41,632 nt of DNA, from positions 1 through 41,632 of the IMG/VR virus record IMGVR_UViG_3300045988_015973; one strand, written 5' to 3'. Position numbers and translations under genes: made by a program. This document shows positions 3,314-39,025 of this stretch, in pieces; the stretch's first letter is position 1; each line of letters begins with the position of its first letter. This stretch comes from a virus. The notes below the pieces were generated by a model. The model saw nothing but the letters and a program-made list of their open reading frames with translations, had not been told where the DNA came from and ran no database searches.

Positions 3314-3748
3314 ATGGGACGGAAACCGACATTCACATCGGCAGAGGAAATGCAGGAGAAGATCGACGCCTATTTTGCAAGCTGCGAGCGGGAGCTGCTG
3401 CGAGATGGAGATGGAACGCCGATGCTGAACAAGAACGGCGAGCCGGTATACGTCGGCGGAAGGCCGATGACCATTCAGGGACTTGCATTGGCGCTCGGGT
3501 TTACCTCGCGGCAGAGCTTGCTCAACTACAAGGCAAAGCGCGAATTTGTGGACACGGTGACGCGCGCGCGCCTGCGTGTGGAACAATACGCAGCCGAACG
3601 GCTCTTTGACCGGGATGCACAGCGCGGCGCACAGTTCACACTTGCATACGGGTTTGGATATGCGCGGGACACAGAGGACAGCAAGAACCGGGAGACGCAA
3701 GGTGTGAAGATTGAGATTGACCGGGAGCTGGAGGAGAGCAGCGAATGA
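3314..3748 (+). CDS. terS: Terminase small subunit
   Basis: MGRKPTFTSAEEMQEKIDAYF...PMTIQGLALALGFTSRQSLLNY is the typical HTH-containing small terminase N-terminus. ATGA overlap with terL. Confidence 0.85.
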   Translation: MGRKPTFTSAEEMQEKIDAYFASCERELLRDGDGTPMLNKNGEPVYVGGRPMTIQGLALALGFTSRQSLLNYKAKREFVDTVTRARLRVEQYAAERLFDRDAQRGAQFTLAYGFGYARDTEDSKNRETQGVKIEIDRELEESSE

Positions 3749-6992: not shown

Positions 6993-8228
6993 ATGGGCAG
7001 CATGAAATTGGCGTACCCATCCATTGCCGGAAAGACGAGCGGGGAACAGCTGGAATCCATGCGGCGCTACCTCTGCACGCTGACGGATCAGCTCAACCTC
7101 GCGGACTGGTCGGCGGGCGCGGTACTGCAGGAAGTGTCGCGGGCCATTGATGCGGACAGCCTGCCGGACGCGGAGCGGAAGACGCAGCTCGGGAATTTTG
7201 GGCAGCTCAAGGCGCTGATTATCAAGACGGCAGACTACGCCGCCGCGAACAGCGAGGAATTTCAGACGAAGCTCTCGGGGAACTATGTGGCGGTATCGGA
7301 CTTCGGGAAGTACTGGCAGGAAGCCACGATGACCATTGACGGAAACGAATTCGGCATCCGGCAGCTCTACGACTACGCGGCGGGCATCAACAATGATTTC
7401 ACGGTGAAGTCACAGCAATATGTGAAGACCGGGCTGCTCTATTACAACGGCGCAGTGCCGGTCTACGGCGTGGGCGTCGGCAACATCGAGACCACGGTGA
7501 CGAAAGACGGCGAGACCGTGGTAGACCAGGCGAAAAATGAGCTGGTGACCGTGACGCCTGGGAGGCTGTCCTTCTGGCAAAGTGGAAGCGAAGTGGCGTA
7601 TCTCACGGATAAGAAGCTGCACTTCCCGTCCGGCACGCTGGAAGCGACAAATGCGGTACTATCCGGGACGCTGACGGCAGCGAGTGGGTCAACGATCGGG
7701 CCGTGGACGGTATCGGACAGCAGCATCTACCGTACCCACAACACATGGGGCGCGTCCGGCGGACTGTATTTCGGGACGAGCGGGCTGAGCCTCGGCAGTA
7801 ATTTCAAGGTCGACGCGAGCGGAAATCTGACGGCGAGCGGCGCAAGCATTTCGGGGACCATTACGGCGAGCAGTCTGTATGTCGGTGGGAACGAGATCGC
7901 GACACAGCTGAACTATCTGACACAAACGGTGTATTCGCAGCTGAGCGCGCTGATGGGCTATGTTACAGCGCAGGGGCAGTACAGCGGGAATCTGGCGGGG
8001 AACACGGTCACGGTTGGGTCGCAAGGGATTTTGTATGGAAGTTATAACTCACAGGGAAACCCGGGAATGGAAGTGTACGGTTCGAACGGACTGAGACTGA
8101 CGTCTGCTGGAAACGTATATCTTGGCGCACAGGGCGGCGGAACGAATGGATCGATCACCATTGGCGGCGGGAAGGTCAGCATCTACGCTGAATCCGGGCT
8201 ATACGTTAACGGAACGAAAGTTACATAA
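6993..8228 (+). CDS. Putative tail fibre/spike-like protein
   Basis: SD aggagg lies 6 nt upstream. The Gly/Ser/Thr-rich C-terminal half has repeats such as SGTLTAASGSTIG and ASISGTITASS. Confidence 0.5.
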   Translation: MGSMKLAYPSIAGKTSGEQLESMRRYLCTLTDQLNLADWSAGAVLQEVSRAIDADSLPDAERKTQLGNFGQLKALIIKTADYAAANSEEFQTKLSGNYVAVSDFGKYWQEATMTIDGNEFGIRQLYDYAAGINNDFTVKSQQYVKTGLLYYNGAVPVYGVGVGNIETTVTKDGETVVDQAKNELVTVTPGRLSFWQSGSEVAYLTDKKLHFPSGTLEATNAVLSGTLTAASGSTIGPWTVSDSSIYRTHNTWGASGGLYFGTSGLSLGSNFKVDASGNLTASGASISGTITASSLYVGGNEIATQLNYLTQTVYSQLSALMGYVTAQGQYSGNLAGNTVTVGSQGILYGSYNSQGNPGMEVYGSNGLRLTSAGNVYLGAQGGGTNGSITIGGGKVSIYAESGLYVNGTKVT

Positions 8229-14344: not shown

Positions 14345-17300
14345 ATGGCTTTAATACCACTGGAAAAAGCAATCGCAAAGGCGAGGGCGAATCAGAGCAA
14401 GAACGAAAAATATAGCACAACTTCGCTTATGTCGCCAAATGATGCGAGGGCACAGCAGGAAATCGGGATGCAGCAGCGACGGACGGCCTTTGAAAACTAC
14501 AAGGCTGCCCGCGCGGCGATGCAGCAACAGGCGCAGCGGCAGGTGACGCAGGGCTATGAGCGCCGGGCGGACGCGATGGGGACTGTGGCGAGGGGGTATG
14601 GGCAGTCGAACATGCCGACGGTGGCAAAGAAGACGGCCTATGAGAATTACACCTATGCGCTCAAGCAGAAGGAGCTTCGGCAGAAACAGATGAGCGGGAA
14701 ACCGCTGACCCCGGAAGAGCAGAAGATTCTGAACACGACAGTCTATCGAGACCCGGCACAGGCCGCGAACGCCGAAAACAACAAGTATCAGAATCAGGCC
14801 GTACAGAACGTGGAGAGCGAAGAACAGATCACCAAGCACCAGTTCGACCATACGCCGGAAATGGTAAAACAGTACGGCTCCTACGAAAACTACAAACGCG
14901 GCCTTTACGACAATGAATATGTCGGCGTCCTGAAAGAGCGGGAGGACGAGCTGGACGGCCAGATCAAGGAACTGGAACAGCAGATCCGGACGCGGCAGGC
15001 AGAAGCGGAGACGGCGACCGAGGAAGGCGTGCGGCGGGAGAATGAGCGGAAAGAGCTGATCAAGCAGGGCAAGCTGGAAGGGATCAGCGACATGGAGGCC
15101 CGGCTTGCGCAGCTTCAGCAGGAGCAGATGCAGCTGCAAAGCGAACGCGCGATGAAGCGCAGCCACATGGCGATCGATCCGCTGGATGACGAGACGAAGG
15201 CGCTGCTGCGGGAATACAACGCGGGCGGCATGTACACGCGGGACTACTCCAAACAGAACGGCGGGAGCGGGCTTTCAAAAATGGAGGCCCGTGCCGATCT
15301 GCGGGCGAAGGGATACAGCGAGGATGAGATCAAGAGCCTTGCAGAGTACGAGCAGCGGCTGCGGGATTATGAGAACGCGATGATACAGGCGGAGGATATG
15401 CAGCGGTTCGGGCAGGAGCATCCGTACATTTCGACGGCGGCGTCCGCGCTGATGGCTCCGGCAAAGGCGCTGGGCAATATCGAATCGGTGCGTGGCGTGC
15501 TGCCGAAGGGGTTTGGCGGGTATCAGAACGCGGATATGCCGACGAATATTTACAGTCCACTGTATAATGCGAGCCGCGTGTCGGGAAGCATCCGAAGCGG
15601 CGTCATGCAGAACATGGGAACCGTCGGACAGTTCCTCTATCAGGCGGGAACCAGCGCCCTGGACAGCGCGGTCAACATGGCGGCGTCGATTGGCTTGGTC
15701 GGTGCGGCGGGGTTAGGCACCGGAGCGGCGGCGCAGGGCGCCGTGGCGAATACGATGAACTTCGTGATGGGGTCACAGGTCGCAGCAGATTCGGTCTATG
15801 AGGGAATCCAGAACGGCAAAAGCAACGTCGATGCGCTGATCGACGGCATTGTGGAGGGTGCAATCGAGGGCATTACCGAGAAATATTCCGTGGGCGACAT
15901 CATTGAGACGATGCTGTCCGGCAAGGCGGCATGGCGCAAGGTCGTCCGGGCGTTCGCTTCGGAGGGCGCAGAGGAAATTGCAAACAACTGGCTCAACCGC
16001 ATCTATGACGTGACCGCGAAGCGCGGGCGCGGCGAAGTGGAAACGGCGTACCGCGCCTATCTTGCGAAGGGAATGAGCGAGCGGGACGCGATGGCCGCGA
16101 TGGTGAAGGATTTTGCAGAGGAAGATGGCCTTTCGTTCCTTGCGGGCGGTCTTTCCGGCTGGGCAATGTCCGGCACGTATGCGGCATTGGGACGTGGCGC
16201 GTCGGAGGCGAATATCCAGTGGACGGCGGCGCAGGCCATTCAGCGCGGCGAGGTACAGGATGTGATCGACCTAGGGCTTGCGCAGGGCGAGGGCACGAGG
16301 GCCTACGCACAGGCGGAGCAGGTACAGAAGACGATGGACGAGGGCGGAGAGGCGACGCAGAAGGACGTGGCGGGCGTGCTGCGCGAGTACGTAAAAGAAC
16401 AGCGTGACGCCGCCGAGGAAGCGCAGAGCGGAGATCAGACGCAGGAGAACCAGACATACCAGAACTTCAAAAACGCCGTGCAGAGCGCGGAGCAGCCGCA
16501 GACAGAGCATGAACAGGCGCAGCGGCAGCAGAACCAGCAGAGCCAAGGCGTCGACCTATACGACGAGGACGGAAGTTTGCTGGATGTGGGCGAAGGATGG
16601 GCCGAGATCGACCCGGAGCAATATGCCGGGCAGCAGACCGCGCAGGCCGAGGCGGAGATGGACAAAGCAGAGGCTGCGGCGGACAATGCCTATCTGGAAC
16701 GTCAGGTGCAGAAGAACGGCTATGACGATCTGACAGCGGCGTATTTTGTAAACGGCAACACGACAGATCTCTCCGTGGAAGAGTATGCCGCGAAATTTCA
16801 GAAGGCATACGAGCGGGGGCAGATGGGCGTTTCGAAGGAGTGGACGGTCGGCGCGGCGGTTGGGATGAACCGGGATGTGGCGACGGCGGCATGGGCGGCA
16901 GGACGAAAAGCGGCACAGCAGAGCGGCGCAGCGCAGTATTCCATTTCGAAGGATTACCGGCAAAAGCTGCGCCAGTGGAACCGGGATGGGAAGCCGGAGG
17001 GCGCGTCGTTTGAACTGGGAACGACCGGCGCGACGCTGCAAGGACTGGGTGCGGCGGAAAGCGACATCTACATGAACGGCGACAAGATCAATACCATTCT
17101 GAAAGAGCACCCTGAGATCACGCTGCGGGAGGTGGAGCGCATCCCGGAGATTCTGGAAGATCCGGTGCTGATTCTGAAAAGCAAGACCGGGCGCGGAGAC
17201 AACAGCCGTCTGGTGCTGTTTGGCAGTGTAAAGGCGAAGAATGGACAGCCGATGATGGCGGTACTCGATTTGCGGGCGACAGAGGACGGATTCCTGCTCG

Positions 17301-31857: not shown

Positions 31858-31897
31858 TAGCAAGATGGAGTATGGTGGGCCATACTCCATCTTGCTA
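31858..31897. repeat. Perfect 18-bp inverted repeat with 4-nt spacer (attP candidate or U-tract-less terminator)
   Basis: Arms are tagcaagatggagtatgg and ccatactccatcttgcta with spacer tggg. Lies 12 nt beyond the integrase stop, between convergent genes. Confidence 0.8.
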
Positions 31898-31908: not shown

Positions 31909-33354
31909 TCAGAAAATGAATTTATAAGAGATCGCGAGGAGCATCTGGGATTTGTCGAAGGTGCAGCGGTCGATGATGGACATGGCGGATTCGTACTTTT
32001 GCGCGACGGTGGCTGTTGGACTACGGAGCGTTTCGAGGACGGCGGCGATGGCATTTCGAAGCAGCGCGGCGGCATCGACGACGGGGACGGCTGCGGATTC
32101 GGAAATTTGCGCGTCGAGGTCGTCAAGCTGCGCTTGCATTTGCTGCCGGGCGGCTTTATAGGTTTCCAGCGTCTCGACGCCGTCTAAGTAAGATTCACGC
32201 AGGCGATCAATACGGGAGACGATACGGGCACGCTGCTGCTGCAAGCGCTGGTCGGAATGAGCGGGTTTTGCGGCTTGAACAACGCAAGCGACAGACTCCG
32301 CGAACGTCAAATCGTGCTGAAGCTGGGCAAGGAAGGATTCTTCCAGTGCCTCGACGGCGATATGCTGGGCGGTCGTGCAGCGTCCGTGCGCATAGTTGTT
32401 ACATTTCATAAAATGCGGACCTGCCCAAATGAGCGTCGCGCCGCAGGTAGAGCAGCGGACAACACCGCATAGCCAGTGCTTGCGCTCAGAGGATGGCTTG
32501 CCATAACGCTTATAGGATTTTTTTAGTTCGGCACAGCGAGCCTGCGCCGCGTCCCACGTTTCGGCATCGATGATTGGTTCGTGCAGCGCGTCGGCGATGA
32601 TGCTGTCCTCGTTCTTGAAATTTCGGTGTGTCCTGCCGGTCGGCGTCCAGCGGAGCTTACCGAGGTAGACGGGGTTATTCAGGATATAATCAATGGTGCG
32701 GTTTTCAAACGGATTTCCGCGATGTGTACGGACGCCCCGGGCGCTCAGATCTTTCGCGATGCGAAACATGGCATCACCGGAGATGAAGCGCCGGAAGATC
32801 TCTCGGATGATATCGGCTTCTTCCGGGACGATGACCAGTTGCCGGTTTTCTACGCGGTAGCCGAAGGATGGTGTAGATTGCAGGGTGCCATTCTTTGCAT
32901 TGACGGTCATGGAGCGCTTGACTTCCTCCGCAAGGCGGACGGAGTAGAATTCGTCCATCCACTCAATGATCCGCTCGATCAGGCTGCCGAAGGGGCCAGC
33001 GATCAGCGGCTCGGAGACGGACACCACATCGACCTTGCACTTGCTGCGCAAGATGGATTTATAGAAAATGGATTCCTCCTGATTGCGGGCAAAGCGGGAG
33101 AACTTCCAGACGATGATGGTGTCGAAGGGGTGTGACGGGTCTTTGGCGGTGGCGATCATCTGCTGGAAGCCGGGGCGCTTTTCAGCAGCCCGGCCGGAAA
33201 TGCCATCGTCGTGGAAGATGTATTCTGAGAGCAGGAGCAGGCCGTTCTTCGCGGCGTATTCCCGGATCTTCTCCATCTGGGAATCCGGGGACAGCTCCAT
33301 TTGGTCATCGGTTGAGACGCGGACATAGGCAGCTGCAATGCGTGGTTCAGGCAT
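31909..33354 (-). CDS. Large serine recombinase (integrase)
   Basis: The ATG at 33354 gives MPEPRIAAAYVRVSTDDQ (catalytic Ser motif). Also has a recombinase domain and a Cys cluster (CGVVRCSTCG...CNNYAHGRC) followed by a coiled coil. The track ORF N-terminal extension was rejected. Confidence 0.9.
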   Translation of the reverse strand: MPEPRIAAAYVRVSTDDQMELSPDSQMEKIREYAAKNGLLLLSEYIFHDDGISGRAAEKRPGFQQMIATAKDPSHPFDTIIVWKFSRFARNQEESIFYKSILRSKCKVDVVSVSEPLIAGPFGSLIERIIEWMDEFYSVRLAEEVKRSMTVNAKNGTLQSTPSFGYRVENRQLVIVPEEADIIREIFRRFISGDAMFRIAKDLSARGVRTHRGNPFENRTIDYILNNPVYLGKLRWTPTGRTHRNFKNEDSIIADALHEPIIDAETWDAAQARCAELKKSYKRYGKPSSERKHWLCGVVRCSTCGATLIWAGPHFMKCNNYAHGRCTTAQHIAVEALEESFLAQLQHDLTFAESVACVVQAAKPAHSDQRLQQQRARIVSRIDRLRESYLDGVETLETYKAARQQMQAQLDDLDAQISESAAVPVVDAAALLRNAIAAVLETLRSPTATVAQKYESAMSIIDRCTFDKSQMLLAISYKFIF

Positions 33355-33808
33355 AGGCGGAGACCTCCCGTAAAATGGACGTGGTAGCACGTATCCAGCC
33401 GACATTGGGAACGAGAAGATCGATGACCAGCGAGATCGCGACAAGGGCGAGGATGGAGACGAGGATGATGGTGACGATGCGGTGCGTGCGAAGGGAGCGA
33501 TTATAAAGCTCAATCTCACGCTTGTAGTGGTCGCGCTCCAAGTGGACGGCCTGCAAAGCGTCAGAAGAAGGAGCGGGATGCTCGATCCCGAGGTATTCGT
33601 CGACGGAGACGCCGAGCATTTTGCAGATCGGGCCAAACGTGGAGAGCGGCGCATTCGGCGTTTCGCCGCGGAGATATTGGCCAACGGCGTTCTGGGACAG
33701 GCCGGATCGTTCGGCCAGCTGCTGGTTGGTGATACGCGGATTTGCGGAATCTTTCTTGTCACGGCATAGCTCCCATAGTTCTTGTTTCAAATTTTCTCCC
33801 TCTTTCAT
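33347..33808 (-). CDS. XRE-family HTH protein with C-terminal transmembrane anchor
   Basis: HTH reads ITNQQLAERSGLSQNAVGQYLRG and the TM reads IVTIILVSILALVAISLVIDLLV. Overlaps the integrase start by 8 nt. The start is uncertain (33808, 33826 or 33940). Confidence 0.6.
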   Translation of the reverse strand: MKEGENLKQELWELCRDKKDSANPRITNQQLAERSGLSQNAVGQYLRGETPNAPLSTFGPICKMLGVSVDEYLGIEHPAPSSDALQAVHLERDHYKREIELYNRSLRTHRIVTIILVSILALVAISLVIDLLVPNVGWIRATTSILREVSAYA

Positions 33809-35299: not shown

Positions 35300-35346
35300 A
35301 AAACTAGTGATAAGAGAAGAGCGTGCGGGGAAAAAGAAAACACACG

Positions 35347-35387
35347 CATGGAACCATCATACGTGCATTTCCCTCCATGTTTTTTTA
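35347..35387 (+). terminator. Terminator/attenuator-like hairpin plus T7 in the PR leader
   Basis: Stem catgga / tccatg is 6 bp with a 21-nt loop, followed by TTTTTTT. The stem is weak. Confidence 0.35.
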
Positions 35388-35562
35388 CCAGAACGCGCTG
35401 CACCGCCACGCCCCACATTCTTCATGTGGTGATACGGCCCATTTTTTATACAGGGTATGTTCCTGTGTGGCTGTACCGGATAAGACGATGGCAGACATGA
35501 ATGGTTCTCATGCTTCTGTGGCGCGCCGCTTCACTTTGGCAGTTATGGCTCTGCCCCTTGCC

Positions 35563-35619
35563 CTATCGCATGACGCCGGGGTTCCGGTCTGGAACGGGCA
35601 AGGTCAAAAGTTTGGTCAT
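35563..35619 (-). CDS. Possible 18-aa micro-ORF (MTKLLTLPVPDRNPGVMR)
   Basis: A perfect SD AAAGGAGGTG lies 5 nt upstream of the ATG on the minus strand, downstream of the candidate promoter at 35661-35689. Very short, so speculative. Confidence 0.2.
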   Translation of the reverse strand: MTKLLTLPVPDRNPGVMR

Positions 35620-35660
35620 ACGACCACCTCCTTTGAGATTGCCACAGCGGGCATGACAAC

Positions 35661-35689
35661 AGAGTACCATAGCTGCAAAGTGAAGTCAA
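35661..35689 (-). promoter_or_regulatory. Candidate leftward promoter inside the PR leader (PRE-like/antisense)
   Basis: On the minus strand: TTGACT, 17-nt spacer, (TGg)TACTCT. Confidence 0.4.
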
Positions 35690-35717
35690 CAAAATTAACA
35701 GAAGGAGACAGCACAAA

Positions 35718-35909
35718 ATGCCGGAAGAATGGACGGGCAGACTCATCGGAGAGATGCACAACGCAGACATCAGCCGGGCGGAGGTCGCCAAAGAACTTGG
35801 CGTGTCGACCGCGTATGTGACGATGGTTCTGAATGGAATACGGACACCGGAGGGCGCGGAAGAAAGACTGCGCGCTGCGTTTGAGCGGGTCAGAAGTAAA
35901 AAGGAATAA
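35718..35909 (+). CDS. Cro-like HTH protein
   Basis: 63 aa. The HTH reads ISRAEVAKELGVSTAYVTMVLNG. SD gaaggag. Confidence 0.7.
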   Translation: MPEEWTGRLIGEMHNADISRAEVAKELGVSTAYVTMVLNGIRTPEGAEERLRAAFERVRSKKE

Positions 35910-37455: not shown

Positions 37456-37629
37456 ATGCAATATAGAATCCGGCGCATATGGCTGAAAAACTCGGCAGAG
37501 ATCGAAAAAGAGGCCAAACGGACGGAAATCATCGTCTGGCCGAGCAAGAATCTGCGAGTTGGTGGAATCTATCAGCTGCGGAGCGGGAAGCTTTATAGGG
37601 TCGAGGAACGGATGGAGGATCGAGCATGA
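37456..37629 (+). CDS. Hypothetical 57-aa protein
   Basis: Below the track length cutoff. SD aaggagaagg. ATGA overlap with the DUF1064 gene. Confidence 0.45.
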   Translation: MQYRIRRIWLKNSAEIEKEAKRTEIIVWPSKNLRVGGIYQLRSGKLYRVEERMEDRA

Positions 37630-38078
37630 GCGGATTGCGATTTGACAGCATGGCGGACATGCCCGCCGGGATGCGGGATCTGTACGCGAAGAAGATCCTT
37701 GGCGGGATGCCGCAGGAGATGCCGACACCGGAGAAGAAAGCGGCCAAGTATCAGAACCAGAAGGCTGAGCGCGGGGGGATTCACTTTGACAGCCAGAAGG
37801 AAGCGCGGCGCTATGACGAGCTGCTGCTGATGCTGCGCGCCGGGGAGATTCGCGATCTACGGCTGCAACCGCAATTCACAATTCAGGAATCCTATGTGAC
37901 GGAGACCGGGGAGCGGGTACGCGCGATCCGGTACACGGCGGACTTTTCATACATCCGGGAAGTGTCCGGCGAGAAGATCGTGGAGGATGTGAAGAGCGGA
38001 CCGACACGGACGAAGGAATATCTACGGAACAGGAAGTTTATGCGGTCGATGTATGGGATCGACGTGCGGGAGGTGTAG
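37626..38078 (+). CDS. DUF1064 family protein (PD-(D/E)xK-type nuclease, resolvase-like)
   Basis: KYQNQKAERGGIHFDSQKEARRYDELLLMLRAGEIRDLRLQPQF...IRYTADFSY...VEDVKS matches the DUF1064 pattern closely. Confidence 0.8.
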   Translation: MSGLRFDSMADMPAGMRDLYAKKILGGMPQEMPTPEKKAAKYQNQKAERGGIHFDSQKEARRYDELLLMLRAGEIRDLRLQPQFTIQESYVTETGERVRAIRYTADFSYIREVSGEKIVEDVKSGPTRTKEYLRNRKFMRSMYGIDVREV

Positions 38079-38081
38079 ACA

Positions 38082-38288
38082 ATGGGAATGAAACCGCTGG
38101 AACAGCTGGATCACTGCCTGTTGGGGAAAGACGCAAGATTTGCAGAGTGCAGGATGGAGTGTGCGCACTGCGGCTGGAACGACGAGGAGGCGGAGCGGCG
38201 GAGACACATTCCGCTGAAATGGTGCGAGGACGGGCTGCGGCGGAAGATTTTGCCGCCGAGACCGCGCACTGATGAACTGGGCAACTGA
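38082..38288 (+). CDS. Cys-rich hypothetical protein
   Basis: 68 aa with SD gaggtg. Confidence 0.55.
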   Translation: MGMKPLEQLDHCLLGKDARFAECRMECAHCGWNDEEAERRRHIPLKWCEDGLRRKILPPRPRTDELGN

Positions 38289-38300
38289 GCCGGATCTACA

Positions 38301-38652
38301 TTTTTTTGTGGGCGTATGCGCAGGCCGCGCCGCCATTCGCGGCCTGCGGAGGATCAACCGGCTTTTTGCTGCGCGTCCGGAGCATGGACAAGTCAGACGG
38401 CCCAATGCTCCGGGCAGCGTATGAACCCGTGTGAGACGTGCGGGAAAGGAACGTCATCCAATGCGCCGAAGATCCACGGCGCACGGCATCTGGCCTCCTA
38501 GGAGAAGCTGCGCGACGCAGATAGGCGCGGCTCGCCCAGGATTTTTTGGGAACACTGGGCGCAGACGGGGAAGGGCCGTCTCTGCTGCCACGGCGCGAAG
38601 GGAACCGCGCCGTGGCATGACCATATTCCAAACGCCAGGGAGGGCGAAAAAA
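38301..38652. other. ORF-free cluster of long perfect GC-rich hairpins (structured RNA or ssDNA element)
   Basis: Stems: 38319-38348 (11 bp), 38375-38415 (9 to 11 bp), 38462-38483 (7 bp), 38533-38561 (7 bp), 38561-38585 (8 bp with a bulge), 38586-38617 (12 bp). A possible closing helix pairs T7/GGCGT at 38301-38315 with ACGCC/A6 at 38632-38652. Confidence 0.5.
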
Positions 38653-38668
38653 TAAAGGAGACGAGACT

Positions 38669-39025
38669 ATGGGAAGAATTATGACGGTATTTGACATCGA
38701 TTTTGGAAAATACGAAGAGAAATGTCACGCGCATCACATGGAAGTCGAGTTCAACAGTGACGTCTATCCGCCGCGGATTGTCCTGACACAGGAACAGACG
38801 TTGTTCGATGTTGGGACGCAACAGGAGCAGACGCGGGAGACGGAGATCGTGGTCGTGGGCGGCGTGGAGCCGCAGATCACGGTGAAGGGCGCATGGGAGA
38901 CCACGCGGAAGCGGCTGAACAAGATGGTGACAGGGGCGCTGAAGCTGCTGGAACTCTATCTGCACGCCTATATGCAAGATCACATGGAGTATGAAGCGGC
39001 CAGAGAAGGAGGCCGGGAAGCATGA
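38669..39025 (+). CDS. Hypothetical protein
   Basis: 118 aa with SD aaaggag. Confidence 0.6.
   Translation: MGRIMTVFDIDFGKYEEKCHAHHMEVEFNSDVYPPRIVLTQEQTLFDVGTQQEQTRETEIVVVGGVEPQITVKGAWETTRKRLNKMVTGALKLLELYLHAYMQDHMEYEAAREGGREA

Follow-up and report, generated by a model that had tools for sequence, protein, structure and literature searches.

A structured intercistronic element of temperate gut phages, a candidate cis-acting RNA of the early operon

The island between two early genes

The viral record IMGVR_UViG_3300045988_015973 of IMG/VR, analysed over the whole of its 41,632 nucleotides (nt) and termed the window below, has the appearance of a complete genome, circularly permuted and 41.6 kb long, from a temperate tailed phage. 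Between about 36.3 kb and the window end, wrapping round to 3.2 kb, runs a rightward block of small early genes, and within this block two genes are separated by some 380 nt packed with GC hairpins (38289-38668), which we call the island. A first-pass annotation, made from the letters alone, had proposed either a large structured non-coding RNA (ncRNA) carried in the early transcript or single-stranded DNA (ssDNA) hairpins serving as a double-strand or single-strand origin (dso, sso) for a Rep protein of the HUH type. Comparison with homologous loci establishes that the island belongs to a family, that the family shares one architecture kept by covariation, that the + strand is the one which folds, that no protein is encoded there, and that a natural variant dispenses with it. 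The comparison points to action as an RNA, perhaps one that regulates the operon in cis. The genes immediately about the island are these:

37626-38078, + strand: DUF1064 resolvase-like gene (Pfam PF06356, 5e-21; PHROG 190), upstream of the island
38082-38288, + strand: gene for a 68-amino-acid (68-aa) Cys-rich protein, directly upstream of the island
38669-39025, + strand: gene for a 118-aa protein of unassigned function, directly downstream, with its ATG at 38669

Neither the 68-aa nor the 118-aa protein has a match in Pfam or PHROGs.

All the stems that had been listed for the island are real: 11 bp with an 8-nt loop at 38319-38348, 7 bp at 38462-38483, 7 bp at 38533-38561, 12 bp at 38586-38617, a conserved stem at 38562-38585 (P8 below), and 9 bp at 38377-38413 that can be extended to 11 by admitting one G.U pair (38375-38415); the palindrome CTCCTAGGAG is likewise present at 38495-38504. 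The claim that so many exceed chance also stands. Perfect hairpins with stems of at least 9 bp and loops of 3-20 nt were counted over the whole 41.6 kb: of the twelve found, three fall within these 300 nt, as against an expectation of about 0.09. Folded as RNA, the 380-nt segment reaches a minimum free energy (MFE) of -176 kcal/mol, whereas its dinucleotide shuffles give -151.5 +/- 6 (z = -4.2; none of 100 shuffles as good), and its - strand gives z = -3.8. The hairpins are, as had been stated, not terminators: no terminator-like site, that is a GC hairpin followed by a U-tract, occurs on the + strand in 38289-38668, and the last strong stem is followed by AUGACC in the window and by AGACGAA in the related clade B, with no U-tract in either. 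One proposal fell, that of a closing helix formed by T7+GGCGT and ACGCC+A6, which is confined to the window's own clade and shows no covariation; the closing helix that is conserved instead joins GCAA..GAGCCGG (38281-38293) to CCGGCUU..UUGC (38358-38369).

The absence of a credible ORF, also claimed at first pass, holds for the window, where 38281-38668 contains no conserved ORF, and for the homologues, none of which encodes a protein here. No reading frame is conserved across the island among them, and distances between anchors and lengths of segments differ between clades by numbers that are not multiples of three. Two candidates were considered and rejected. An ORF of 61 aa has a stop codon in two relatives (L034 and L025) and suffers 1-nt indels in homopolymer runs among close relatives; a 26-aa peptide, 'MNPCETCGK', is broken by stops, shows non-synonymous changes, and has no Shine-Dalgarno (SD) sequence that we could see upstream.

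A family with a common architecture

Relatives were collected from IMG/VR, metagenomes and GTDB genomes by means of the flanking proteins and of short conserved DNA patterns. Among 522 sequences (521 fetched loci and the window) 366 carry the island, in at least 239 distinct versions whose length ranges from about 330 to 430 nt. A first clustering at 93% identity gave nine clusters, and a further clade, represented by loci L331 and L387, came later; the total is at least nine. Their contigs are mostly of 35-48 kb and derive almost all from human-gut samples; of the 120 metagenome pattern matches listed, 99 are true members, nearly all in human-gut assemblies. Three genome matches are metagenome-assembled genomes, of Clostridiales bacterium UBA735, an uncultured Clostridiales and an uncultured Oscillospiraceae. 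The island found no blastn match in 50,697 deposited phage genomes. The Rfam scan suggested by the first-pass annotation yielded no Rfam 15 match to the island, in the window or in versions from other clades: at the gathering threshold the only hit in the whole window is FuFi-1, which lies elsewhere; a permissive scan of 38000-38900 gave at best 18 bits (E = 6.8), and one of loci with five other clade versions gave nothing in the island. The families thus not encountered there include ROOL, GOLLD, GEBRO, ARRPOF, PAGEV, EAR, T-box, riboswitches, ribozymes and group I and II introns. On these comparisons the island is a member of an uncatalogued family of structured elements in temperate tailed phages of human-gut Clostridiales and Oscillospiraceae.

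Its surroundings are constant on one side and variable on the other. The DUF1064 gene always precedes the island, and the small Cys-rich gene usually separates the two; clade G has no Cys-rich gene there. The gene that follows it encodes the 118-aa protein in clade A (that of the window), a zinc-ribbon protein in clades B and F, a 69-aa Cys-rich protein in C and D, and others in E and G. Within clade A islands are 95-98% identical even where the DUF1064 proteins are only 74-86% identical. In the later clade (L331:8445-8790, and L387) the element stands directly after DUF1064 with no small Cys-rich gene, and every stem has been rewritten, P9 for example reading CGCGGGGCGG-AACA-CCGCCCCGCG. Since this clade lacks the Cys-rich gene, the link of the element to the Cys-rich protein is not obligatory; L237 and L263 have the protein and no island.

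Some members also contain a further segment of about 110 nt, in one or two copies, between the 3' strand of P1 and P3 (L032:3247-3355 and 3474-3582; L282, L327, L332, L485). It reads GTCAGAAGAAGCCTG...GGCTCGGAATCGG and folds alone into two hairpins (-49.5 kcal/mol). Fourteen copies occur in 11 loci, one of them, 76% identical, in an unrelated phage locus (L036:791-890). The segment may be either a mobile insert resembling a miniature inverted-repeat transposable element or a structural expansion segment.

The order of helices is common to all clades: P0-P3, an H-type pseudoknot, P5, a CCUCCU, then P6-P9, which amounts to about ten helices and about 75 conserved base pairs. In window coordinates the parts are:

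38281-38668, + strand: whole element, which begins within the final codons of the 68-aa gene, takes in its stop and extends to the next start codon
38281-84 (GCAA) and 38287-93 (GAGCCGG), + strand: 5' strands of P0 and P1, with their partner at 38358-38369
38319-38348, + strand: P2 hairpin, 11 bp, with a conserved CGCCAU in the loop
38358-64 (CCGGCUU) and 38366-69 (UUGC), + strand: 3' strands of P1 and P0
38375-38415, + strand: P3 hairpin, 9-11 bp, 19-nt loop
38426-30 (CCCGU) with 38440-44 (GCGGG), + strand: pseudoknot stem S1, whose loop holds the 5' strand of S2, GAGACGU 38433-39
38451-38458 (ACGUC-A-UC), + strand: 3' strand of pseudoknot stem S2, partner 38433-38439, A38456 bulged
38462-38483, + strand: P5 hairpin, 7 bp, 8-nt loop
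38494-38499, + strand: single-stranded CCUCCU, anti-SD-like, between P5 and P6; CCUC(C/U)U in all clades
38507-13 (GCUGCGC) with 38525-31 (GCGCGGC), + strand: P6
38533-38561, + strand: P7, CGCCCAG with CUGGGCG; enlarged by some 35 nt between its strands in clades B and C
38562-38585, + strand: P8, CAGACGG with CCGUCU..G; in most clades a U.G pair and a GNRA cap (GAAA, GCAA, GCGA)
38586-38617, + strand: P9 terminal hairpin, 12 bp, no U-tract after it
38618-38668, + strand: clade-A-specific tail, with a small hairpin at 38633-38646 and the SD, AAGGAG 38655-38660, of the 118-aa gene

In the other clades the SD lies within about 10 nt after P9.

Testing homologues for covariation, as had been advised, revealed compensatory changes in nearly every helix, the general mark of a conserved structured RNA. 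As a control the helix partners were shifted ("slid") along the alignment. Domain 1 (P0-P3) on a plain MAFFT alignment without clade A has 94.3% of its cells paired, against 38-46% when slid, with eight pairs changed on both sides. When all clades are included RNAalifold, applied to the MAFFT alignment, mispredicts P1 and P2 of this domain, clade A being offset by one column, and covariance models were used instead; on the resulting alignment (A5) 96.1% of cells are paired and 27 of 33 pairs are changed on both sides, and the covariation score of the domain is 0.279 as against 0.094 in shuffles, none of 500 being as high. Domain 2 (S1, S2 and P6), for which all clades were aligned with plain MAFFT, is 98.1% paired (35-52% slid) with double changes at 7 of 20 pairs, two of them in the pseudoknot stem; domain 3 (P7-P9), on a filtered model alignment, is 99.9% paired (about 40% slid) with double changes at 11 of 22. 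Covariance models also recognise the window from outside its own clade: model R1, made from domain 1 without clade A, matches 38280-38426 (54 bits, E ~3e-9), and model R2, made from domain 3 of clades B and C only, matches 38519-38636 (33 bits, E ~4e-7), neither having any other match in the window.

Within domain 1, P0/P1 (helices 1 and 2 of A5) is 96% paired, has both-side changes at 11 of 12 pairs, and shows G-C, G.U and A-U alternatives in clade B; the P2 stem differs by clade (CGCAGGCCGCG, CCGCAGCCG, GCCGCGCGGC, GCCGGCGCG) while its loop motif is kept, 6 of 9 pairs having changed on both sides; and P3, predicted by RNAalifold on an unfitted MAFFT alignment with five to seven compensatory pairs, has both-side changes at 10 of 12 pairs on A5. 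In the pseudoknot, S1 is 95.7% paired on the MAFFT alignment A6, where column pair 8-24 reads GC:35 / CG:4 and a U.G pair alternates with C-G (UG:39 / CG:2). S2 is 99.7% paired on the same alignment, unfitted, with two covarying pairs (GC:34 / AU:7 and AU:29 / GC:8 / GU:4); over 233 distinct islands one pair is AU in 169, GC in 45, GU in 17 and AC in 2, the other GC in 189, AU in 42 and GA in 2. The P5 slot is occupied in other clades by at least eight unrelated arm sequences, all forming a hairpin of 7-9 bp. P6 is 98.6% paired on A6 (pair 112-133 CG:25 / UA:10 / UG:5; pair 115-130 CG:37 / GC:4). On alignment A9 the pair types of P7 are CG/UA, GC/GU/AU and GC/CG/GU; one position of P8 is AU in 24, GU in 7 and GC in 7; and the P9 slot holds at least eight different stem sequences, with both-side changes at 8 of 9 modelled pairs.

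Three other pairings were tried and set aside. An inner extension of S1 into a P4 hairpin, which would add three G.U pairs in tandem, displays single-sided changes only and clashes with the better-supported S2; in view of these single-sided changes we prefer the pseudoknot, and a switch between it and the extended S1 hairpin is possible. Kissing of the P2-loop CGCCAU with an AUGGC in the P6 loop shows no covariation by eye, and a helix specific to clade B (GCUCGCC/GGCGAGC) is not kept in clade C and clashes with P7.

The kinds of mismatch tell which strand folds. Cells of the helices hold 175 G.U as against 42 A.C combinations overall, and 114 against 5 in domains 2 and 3; such an excess identifies the + strand, that of the mRNA, as the folding strand, for selection on the - strand would give the reverse, and a symmetric palindrome of double-stranded DNA (dsDNA) would not give the asymmetry. 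The + strand is also the more stable, by 8-24 kcal/mol in 13 of 13 clade representatives, part of this difference being due to its richness in G.

Rep, an island-less relative and other structured sequences of the genome

The Rep protein invoked by the first-pass annotation is real. Its gene (2175-2954) matches PHROG 3584, 'replication initiation protein' (E = 9e-36); the protein has an HLH motif and a weak match to Pfam REP_ORF2-G2P, and its distant relatives include gp31 of Clostridium phage PhiS63 and the Rep proteins of 10-kb and 1.6-kb plasmids. A sequence search of the PDB with Rep, or with the 68-aa protein, gave no match. Rep, whose gene immediately precedes the packaging genes, is the only replication protein found; the early genes scanned yielded no recognisable helicase or primase, which makes rolling-circle replication plausible.

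Eighty contigs encode a Rep at least 62% identical to that of the window; wherever they extend far enough upstream, the island is present 0.9-6.8 kb before rep and on its strand, in all but one case. This co-occurrence lies within a single phage lineage and is not independent evidence. The exception, L263 (IMGVR_UViG_3300045988_006627), has a Rep 64% identical and the same synteny and no island: its DUF1064 gene, Cys-rich gene and homologue of the 118-aa gene are contiguous (L263:6536-7513), the end of the Cys-rich gene at 7191 overlapping the next ATG at 7185. In phage nd12, whose Rep is 58% identical, a search of the final 8.7 kb of the linear record found no island; this stretch is upstream of rep only if the record is circularly permuted. 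Being absent from L263, the island is accessory and not the obligatory dso of Rep. It does not show the features of a dso (obligatory presence, proximity to rep, an invariant nick sequence in a loop), nor that of an ssoA-type sso, since CS-6 (TAGCGW) occurs at seven sites in the window and at none in the island.

Directly upstream of rep there is another GC hairpin, at 2116-2144 of the window, at 4705-4745 of L239, and in many of loci L240-L319. The stem varies, AGCGCCGG-GCGA-CCGGCGCT in the window and TGGCCGG-AATTT-CCGGCCA in other clades, and the flanks, CTGAACG and GCTTTGA(A/G)C, are kept; no such hairpin is present in loci whose rep comes immediately after the methylase gene. The hairpin could be the dso or nick site, for which it is a better candidate than the island, or a weak attenuator.

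The remainder of the genome has the plan of a temperate tailed phage. The large terminase and structural genes are on the + strand, between 3.7 and 28.8 kb; the - strand encodes a large serine integrase (31909-33762) and the products of adjacent genes; the early genes leave the window at its 3' end and resume at its 5' end, up to the terminase at 3745. After the 118-aa gene come, in order, the zinc-ribbon gene, an N6/N4 DNA methylase, a DUF551 gene and an HNH gene. Three other structured sequences were noted:

35336-35577, - strand: full-length FuFi-1 RNA (Rfam RF02986; 98 bits against a gathering threshold of 59.6, E = 3.5e-20)
31858-31897: the longest perfect inverted repeat of the window, 18 bp (TAGCAAGATGGAGTATGG) with a 4-nt loop, just past the 3' end of the serine integrase gene (- strand)
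23193-23227: a perfect 15-bp hairpin, AAAAAACCGGAGCGG, with a 5-nt loop and A/T runs on either side, directly after a 2948-aa ORF (14345-23191)

The 18-bp repeat could be a terminator or related to attP, and the 15-bp hairpin looks like a bidirectional intrinsic terminator. FuFi-1, with the lysogeny module on one side and the early genes on the other, overlaps a spurious 165-aa ORF of the + strand (35323-35820) and has been described as a structurally sophisticated motif of unknown function (Weinberg 2017, PMC5737381). With the island it makes two complex structured elements in one phage.

Possible roles of the element

The + strand being the sense strand of the operon, the simplest reading of the island is an RNA domain of the early transcript, and its position between two rightward genes of the early operon suggests that it is transcribed within that mRNA. 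The first of the two options originally proposed, a structured RNA, is thus the one favoured by the comparative evidence, the presence of the island in the transcript being deduced from the genome sequence. Features more typical of RNA point the same way: a pseudoknot that covaries, GNRA caps and a tolerance of G.U pairs. We consider it very probable that the island is a single-stranded structure of the + strand maintained by selection, and probable that it acts as an RNA. The best explanation, to which we give a probability of roughly one half, is that it is a cis-acting regulatory RNA of the early operon, lodged between cistrons and possibly masking the next SD.

On this explanation the 5' part would fold with the P0/P1 closing helix around P2, followed by P3, the H-type pseudoknot and P5, and the 3' part would be made of P6, P7 with its clade-specific expansion, the GNRA-capped P8 and the strong P9. 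Pairing of CCUCCU with the SD of the next gene would close off the 3' part (P6-P9) and mask the ribosome-binding site (RBS); the fold would gate expression of the downstream block of genes, and the 5' part with its pseudoknot would sense or bind something. Single-sequence MFE folds do pair CCUCCU with the downstream SD in most clade representatives, and in clades B and G a run of U after CCUCC matches a run of A before the SD, giving 6-7 bp as read from the sequences. CCTCCT occurs at 29 sites in the window, six of them on the + strand, and the island copy is, on our own reading of gene positions, the only one placed inside + strand-transcribed gene sequence.

Several observations weigh against this explanation. 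Any CCUCC motif pairs with any SD, and for three or four of the 14 representatives the SD has another partner, or none, in the MFE fold. The cognate SD had to be rejected as best partner of the anti-SD: at -11.8 kcal/mol it ranks 16th among the 36 RBSs of the window, the strongest of which (-21.3 kcal/mol) belongs to the second gene downstream, the zinc-ribbon gene at 39022. There AGGAGGCC (within 39000-39021) is perfectly complementary over 8 bp to GGCCUCCU of the island (within 38488-38506); in clade B it is the zinc-ribbon gene that comes next after the island. Variation of the downstream gene between clades argues against a gene-specific leader. The compensatory changes were counted in related sequences with no correction for kinship, and of the three alignments two had been fitted to the structure under test. 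The phage also possesses an HUH Rep of rolling-circle type, with no companion helicase or primase recognised among the early genes scanned, and sequence analysis does not reliably separate ssDNA from RNA motifs (Weinberg et al. 2017, PMC5737381). SD masking as the mechanism is a tentative proposal, and we think it somewhat doubtful.

Among known cis-acting systems, leaders that sequester an SD (riboswitch expression platforms, the pseudoknot operator of T4 gene 32) resemble the island in placing a structure upstream of an RBS, in having a pseudoknot and a pyrimidine stretch able to pair with the SD, and, for T4, in belonging to a phage operon. The island differs in being three to five times larger, in having no known ligand or repressor and no conserved regulated gene, and in that its anti-SD stands 130-170 nt from the SD with four helices between them, the cognate pairing being no stronger than the window average. 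Processive antitermination, by putL and putR of HK022 or by the Bacillus EAR element, offers another likeness, that of a structured RNA acting in cis within a long operon, which suits a phage with nearly all its genes on one strand; EAR is moreover intercistronic and contains a pseudoknot. Against this, the island with its 330-430 nt far exceeds put (about 70 nt) and EAR (about 120 nt), there is no similarity of sequence or match in Rfam, and no downstream terminators were identified that might be overridden.

The second of the original options must be divided. That the island is the dso or nick site of Rep is suggested by its hairpins, which are typical of dso sites, and by the presence of the rep gene, and is nevertheless very improbable: L263 does without it, none was seen in the stretch of nd12 searched, its distance from rep ranges between 0.9 and 6.8 kb, no loop is invariant across clades as that of a nick site ought to be (those of P3, P5 and P9 differ), and the hairpin next to rep is a better candidate. 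An accessory role of the sso kind is possible, if unlikely, and the existence of an island-less phage weakens it less, since ssos are dispensable cassettes whose accessory and interchangeable nature is compatible with such an absence. The island would then fold on the + strand as this is displaced during sigma-type replication driven by Rep, and recruit host RNA polymerase or a primosome for lagging-strand synthesis. In rolling-circle plasmids the displaced strand is the rep-coding strand if that is the one nicked by Rep; by analogy the folding + strand would be the displaced one here, and in those relatives which have the island its location upstream of rep would cause it to be displaced late, as plasmid ssos are. 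The plasmid and PhiS63 relatives of Rep, and the lack of a recognised helicase or primase, suit this proposal. The island also shares with ssoA, ssoU and ssoT, with the minus-strand origins of f1 and G4, and with GEBRO, ARRPOF and PAGEV the character of a non-coding, strand-specific, hairpin-rich sequence (150-350 nt in those cases) in the replicon of an HUH Rep, accessory, cassette-like and upstream of rep, and with GEBRO a high G+C content; ssDNA roles have been proposed for the last three, plasmid motifs of 223-349 nt (Weinberg et al. 2017, PMC5737381). It departs from them in its lack of TAGCGW and of any Rfam match to GEBRO, ARRPOF or PAGEV, and in its replicon, a 41-kb tailed phage. The covarying pseudoknot, the 175 cells with G.U pairs and the GNRA caps are more RNA-like; neither a pseudoknot nor GNRA caps nor an SD directly after P9 belong to the known ssos; the island exactly fills an intercistronic gap; and the association with Rep is confined to one lineage. 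We know of no sso described so far for a tailed dsDNA phage.

If the island is an RNA, it might instead act in trans or autonomously, excised from the operon transcript or stabilised out of it: as a ribozyme, a ligand sensor, a scaffold for a ribonucleoprotein (with the 68-aa Cys-rich protein, for instance), a decoy against host defence or a self-assembling RNA in the manner of ROOL and GOLLD; or CCUCCU could be a seed that binds the SDs of other mRNAs. Its size and complexity, with about ten helices, a pseudoknot and GNRA loops, go beyond what SD masking needs, the changing downstream gene suggests a self-contained module, in clade F CCUCC is displayed in the loop of a 5-bp hairpin (UUGAA-CCUCC-UUCAA), the anti-SD of the window pairs best with a non-adjacent RBS, and the same genome carries the prophage-associated ncRNA FuFi-1. 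We nonetheless judge independent action unlikely. No promoter-like site precedes the island and no terminator follows it, and the link with the Cys-rich protein is loose, clade G having the island and no protein, L237 and L263 the reverse. ROOL, GOLLD and FuFi-1 are comparable as complex and conserved multi-helix RNAs of Firmicutes prophages that have no obvious target gene in cis; the island has no Rfam match to them, is smaller than ROOL and GOLLD, lacks the 3' terminator of FuFi-1 and any adjacent tRNAs, and lies in sense within an operon. That it has no function of its own, as a decayed gene, a GC-rich filler with chance hairpins or a set of protein-bound dsDNA palindromes, is barely credible: high G+C content does make hairpins and spurious ORFs frequent, and L263 manages without the island, but no reading frame is conserved, some 75 base pairs have been kept by compensatory changes across at least nine clusters, the G.U/A.C asymmetry excludes symmetric palindromes, and in clade A the island is better conserved than the neighbouring DUF1064 protein.

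The island would thus represent a new family of structured phage RNA within operons, absent from Rfam. The viral catalogue of candidate structured RNAs has entries of 30-151 nt (Fremin et al. 2023, PMC10690425), so that the whole architecture is not in it, and at most individual hairpins of the island could be. The more far-reaching outcomes, a class of large structured RNA that does more than mask an SD, or the first sso of a tailed dsDNA phage with a plasmid-type HUH Rep, we regard as rather unlikely taken together; in the former case it could be a switch that senses a ligand or protein and times the early-to-late transition in a widespread set of human-gut phages, or a catalytic or ROOL/GOLLD-like self-assembling RNA. 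Whichever holds, the family poses a clean question of RNA versus ssDNA in a tailed phage that has a plasmid-type rolling-circle Rep, and nature supplies genotypes for comparison: the island-less L263 as a deletion control, and the variants with the structured 110-nt insert between P1 and P3. So complex an RNA usually has a specific job, and to our knowledge almost no phage biology has been studied experimentally in the Oscillospiraceae. The abundance of the element and its elaborate structure make it a promising candidate for a novel class of RNA, regulatory or biochemical, in the phages of these gut bacteria.

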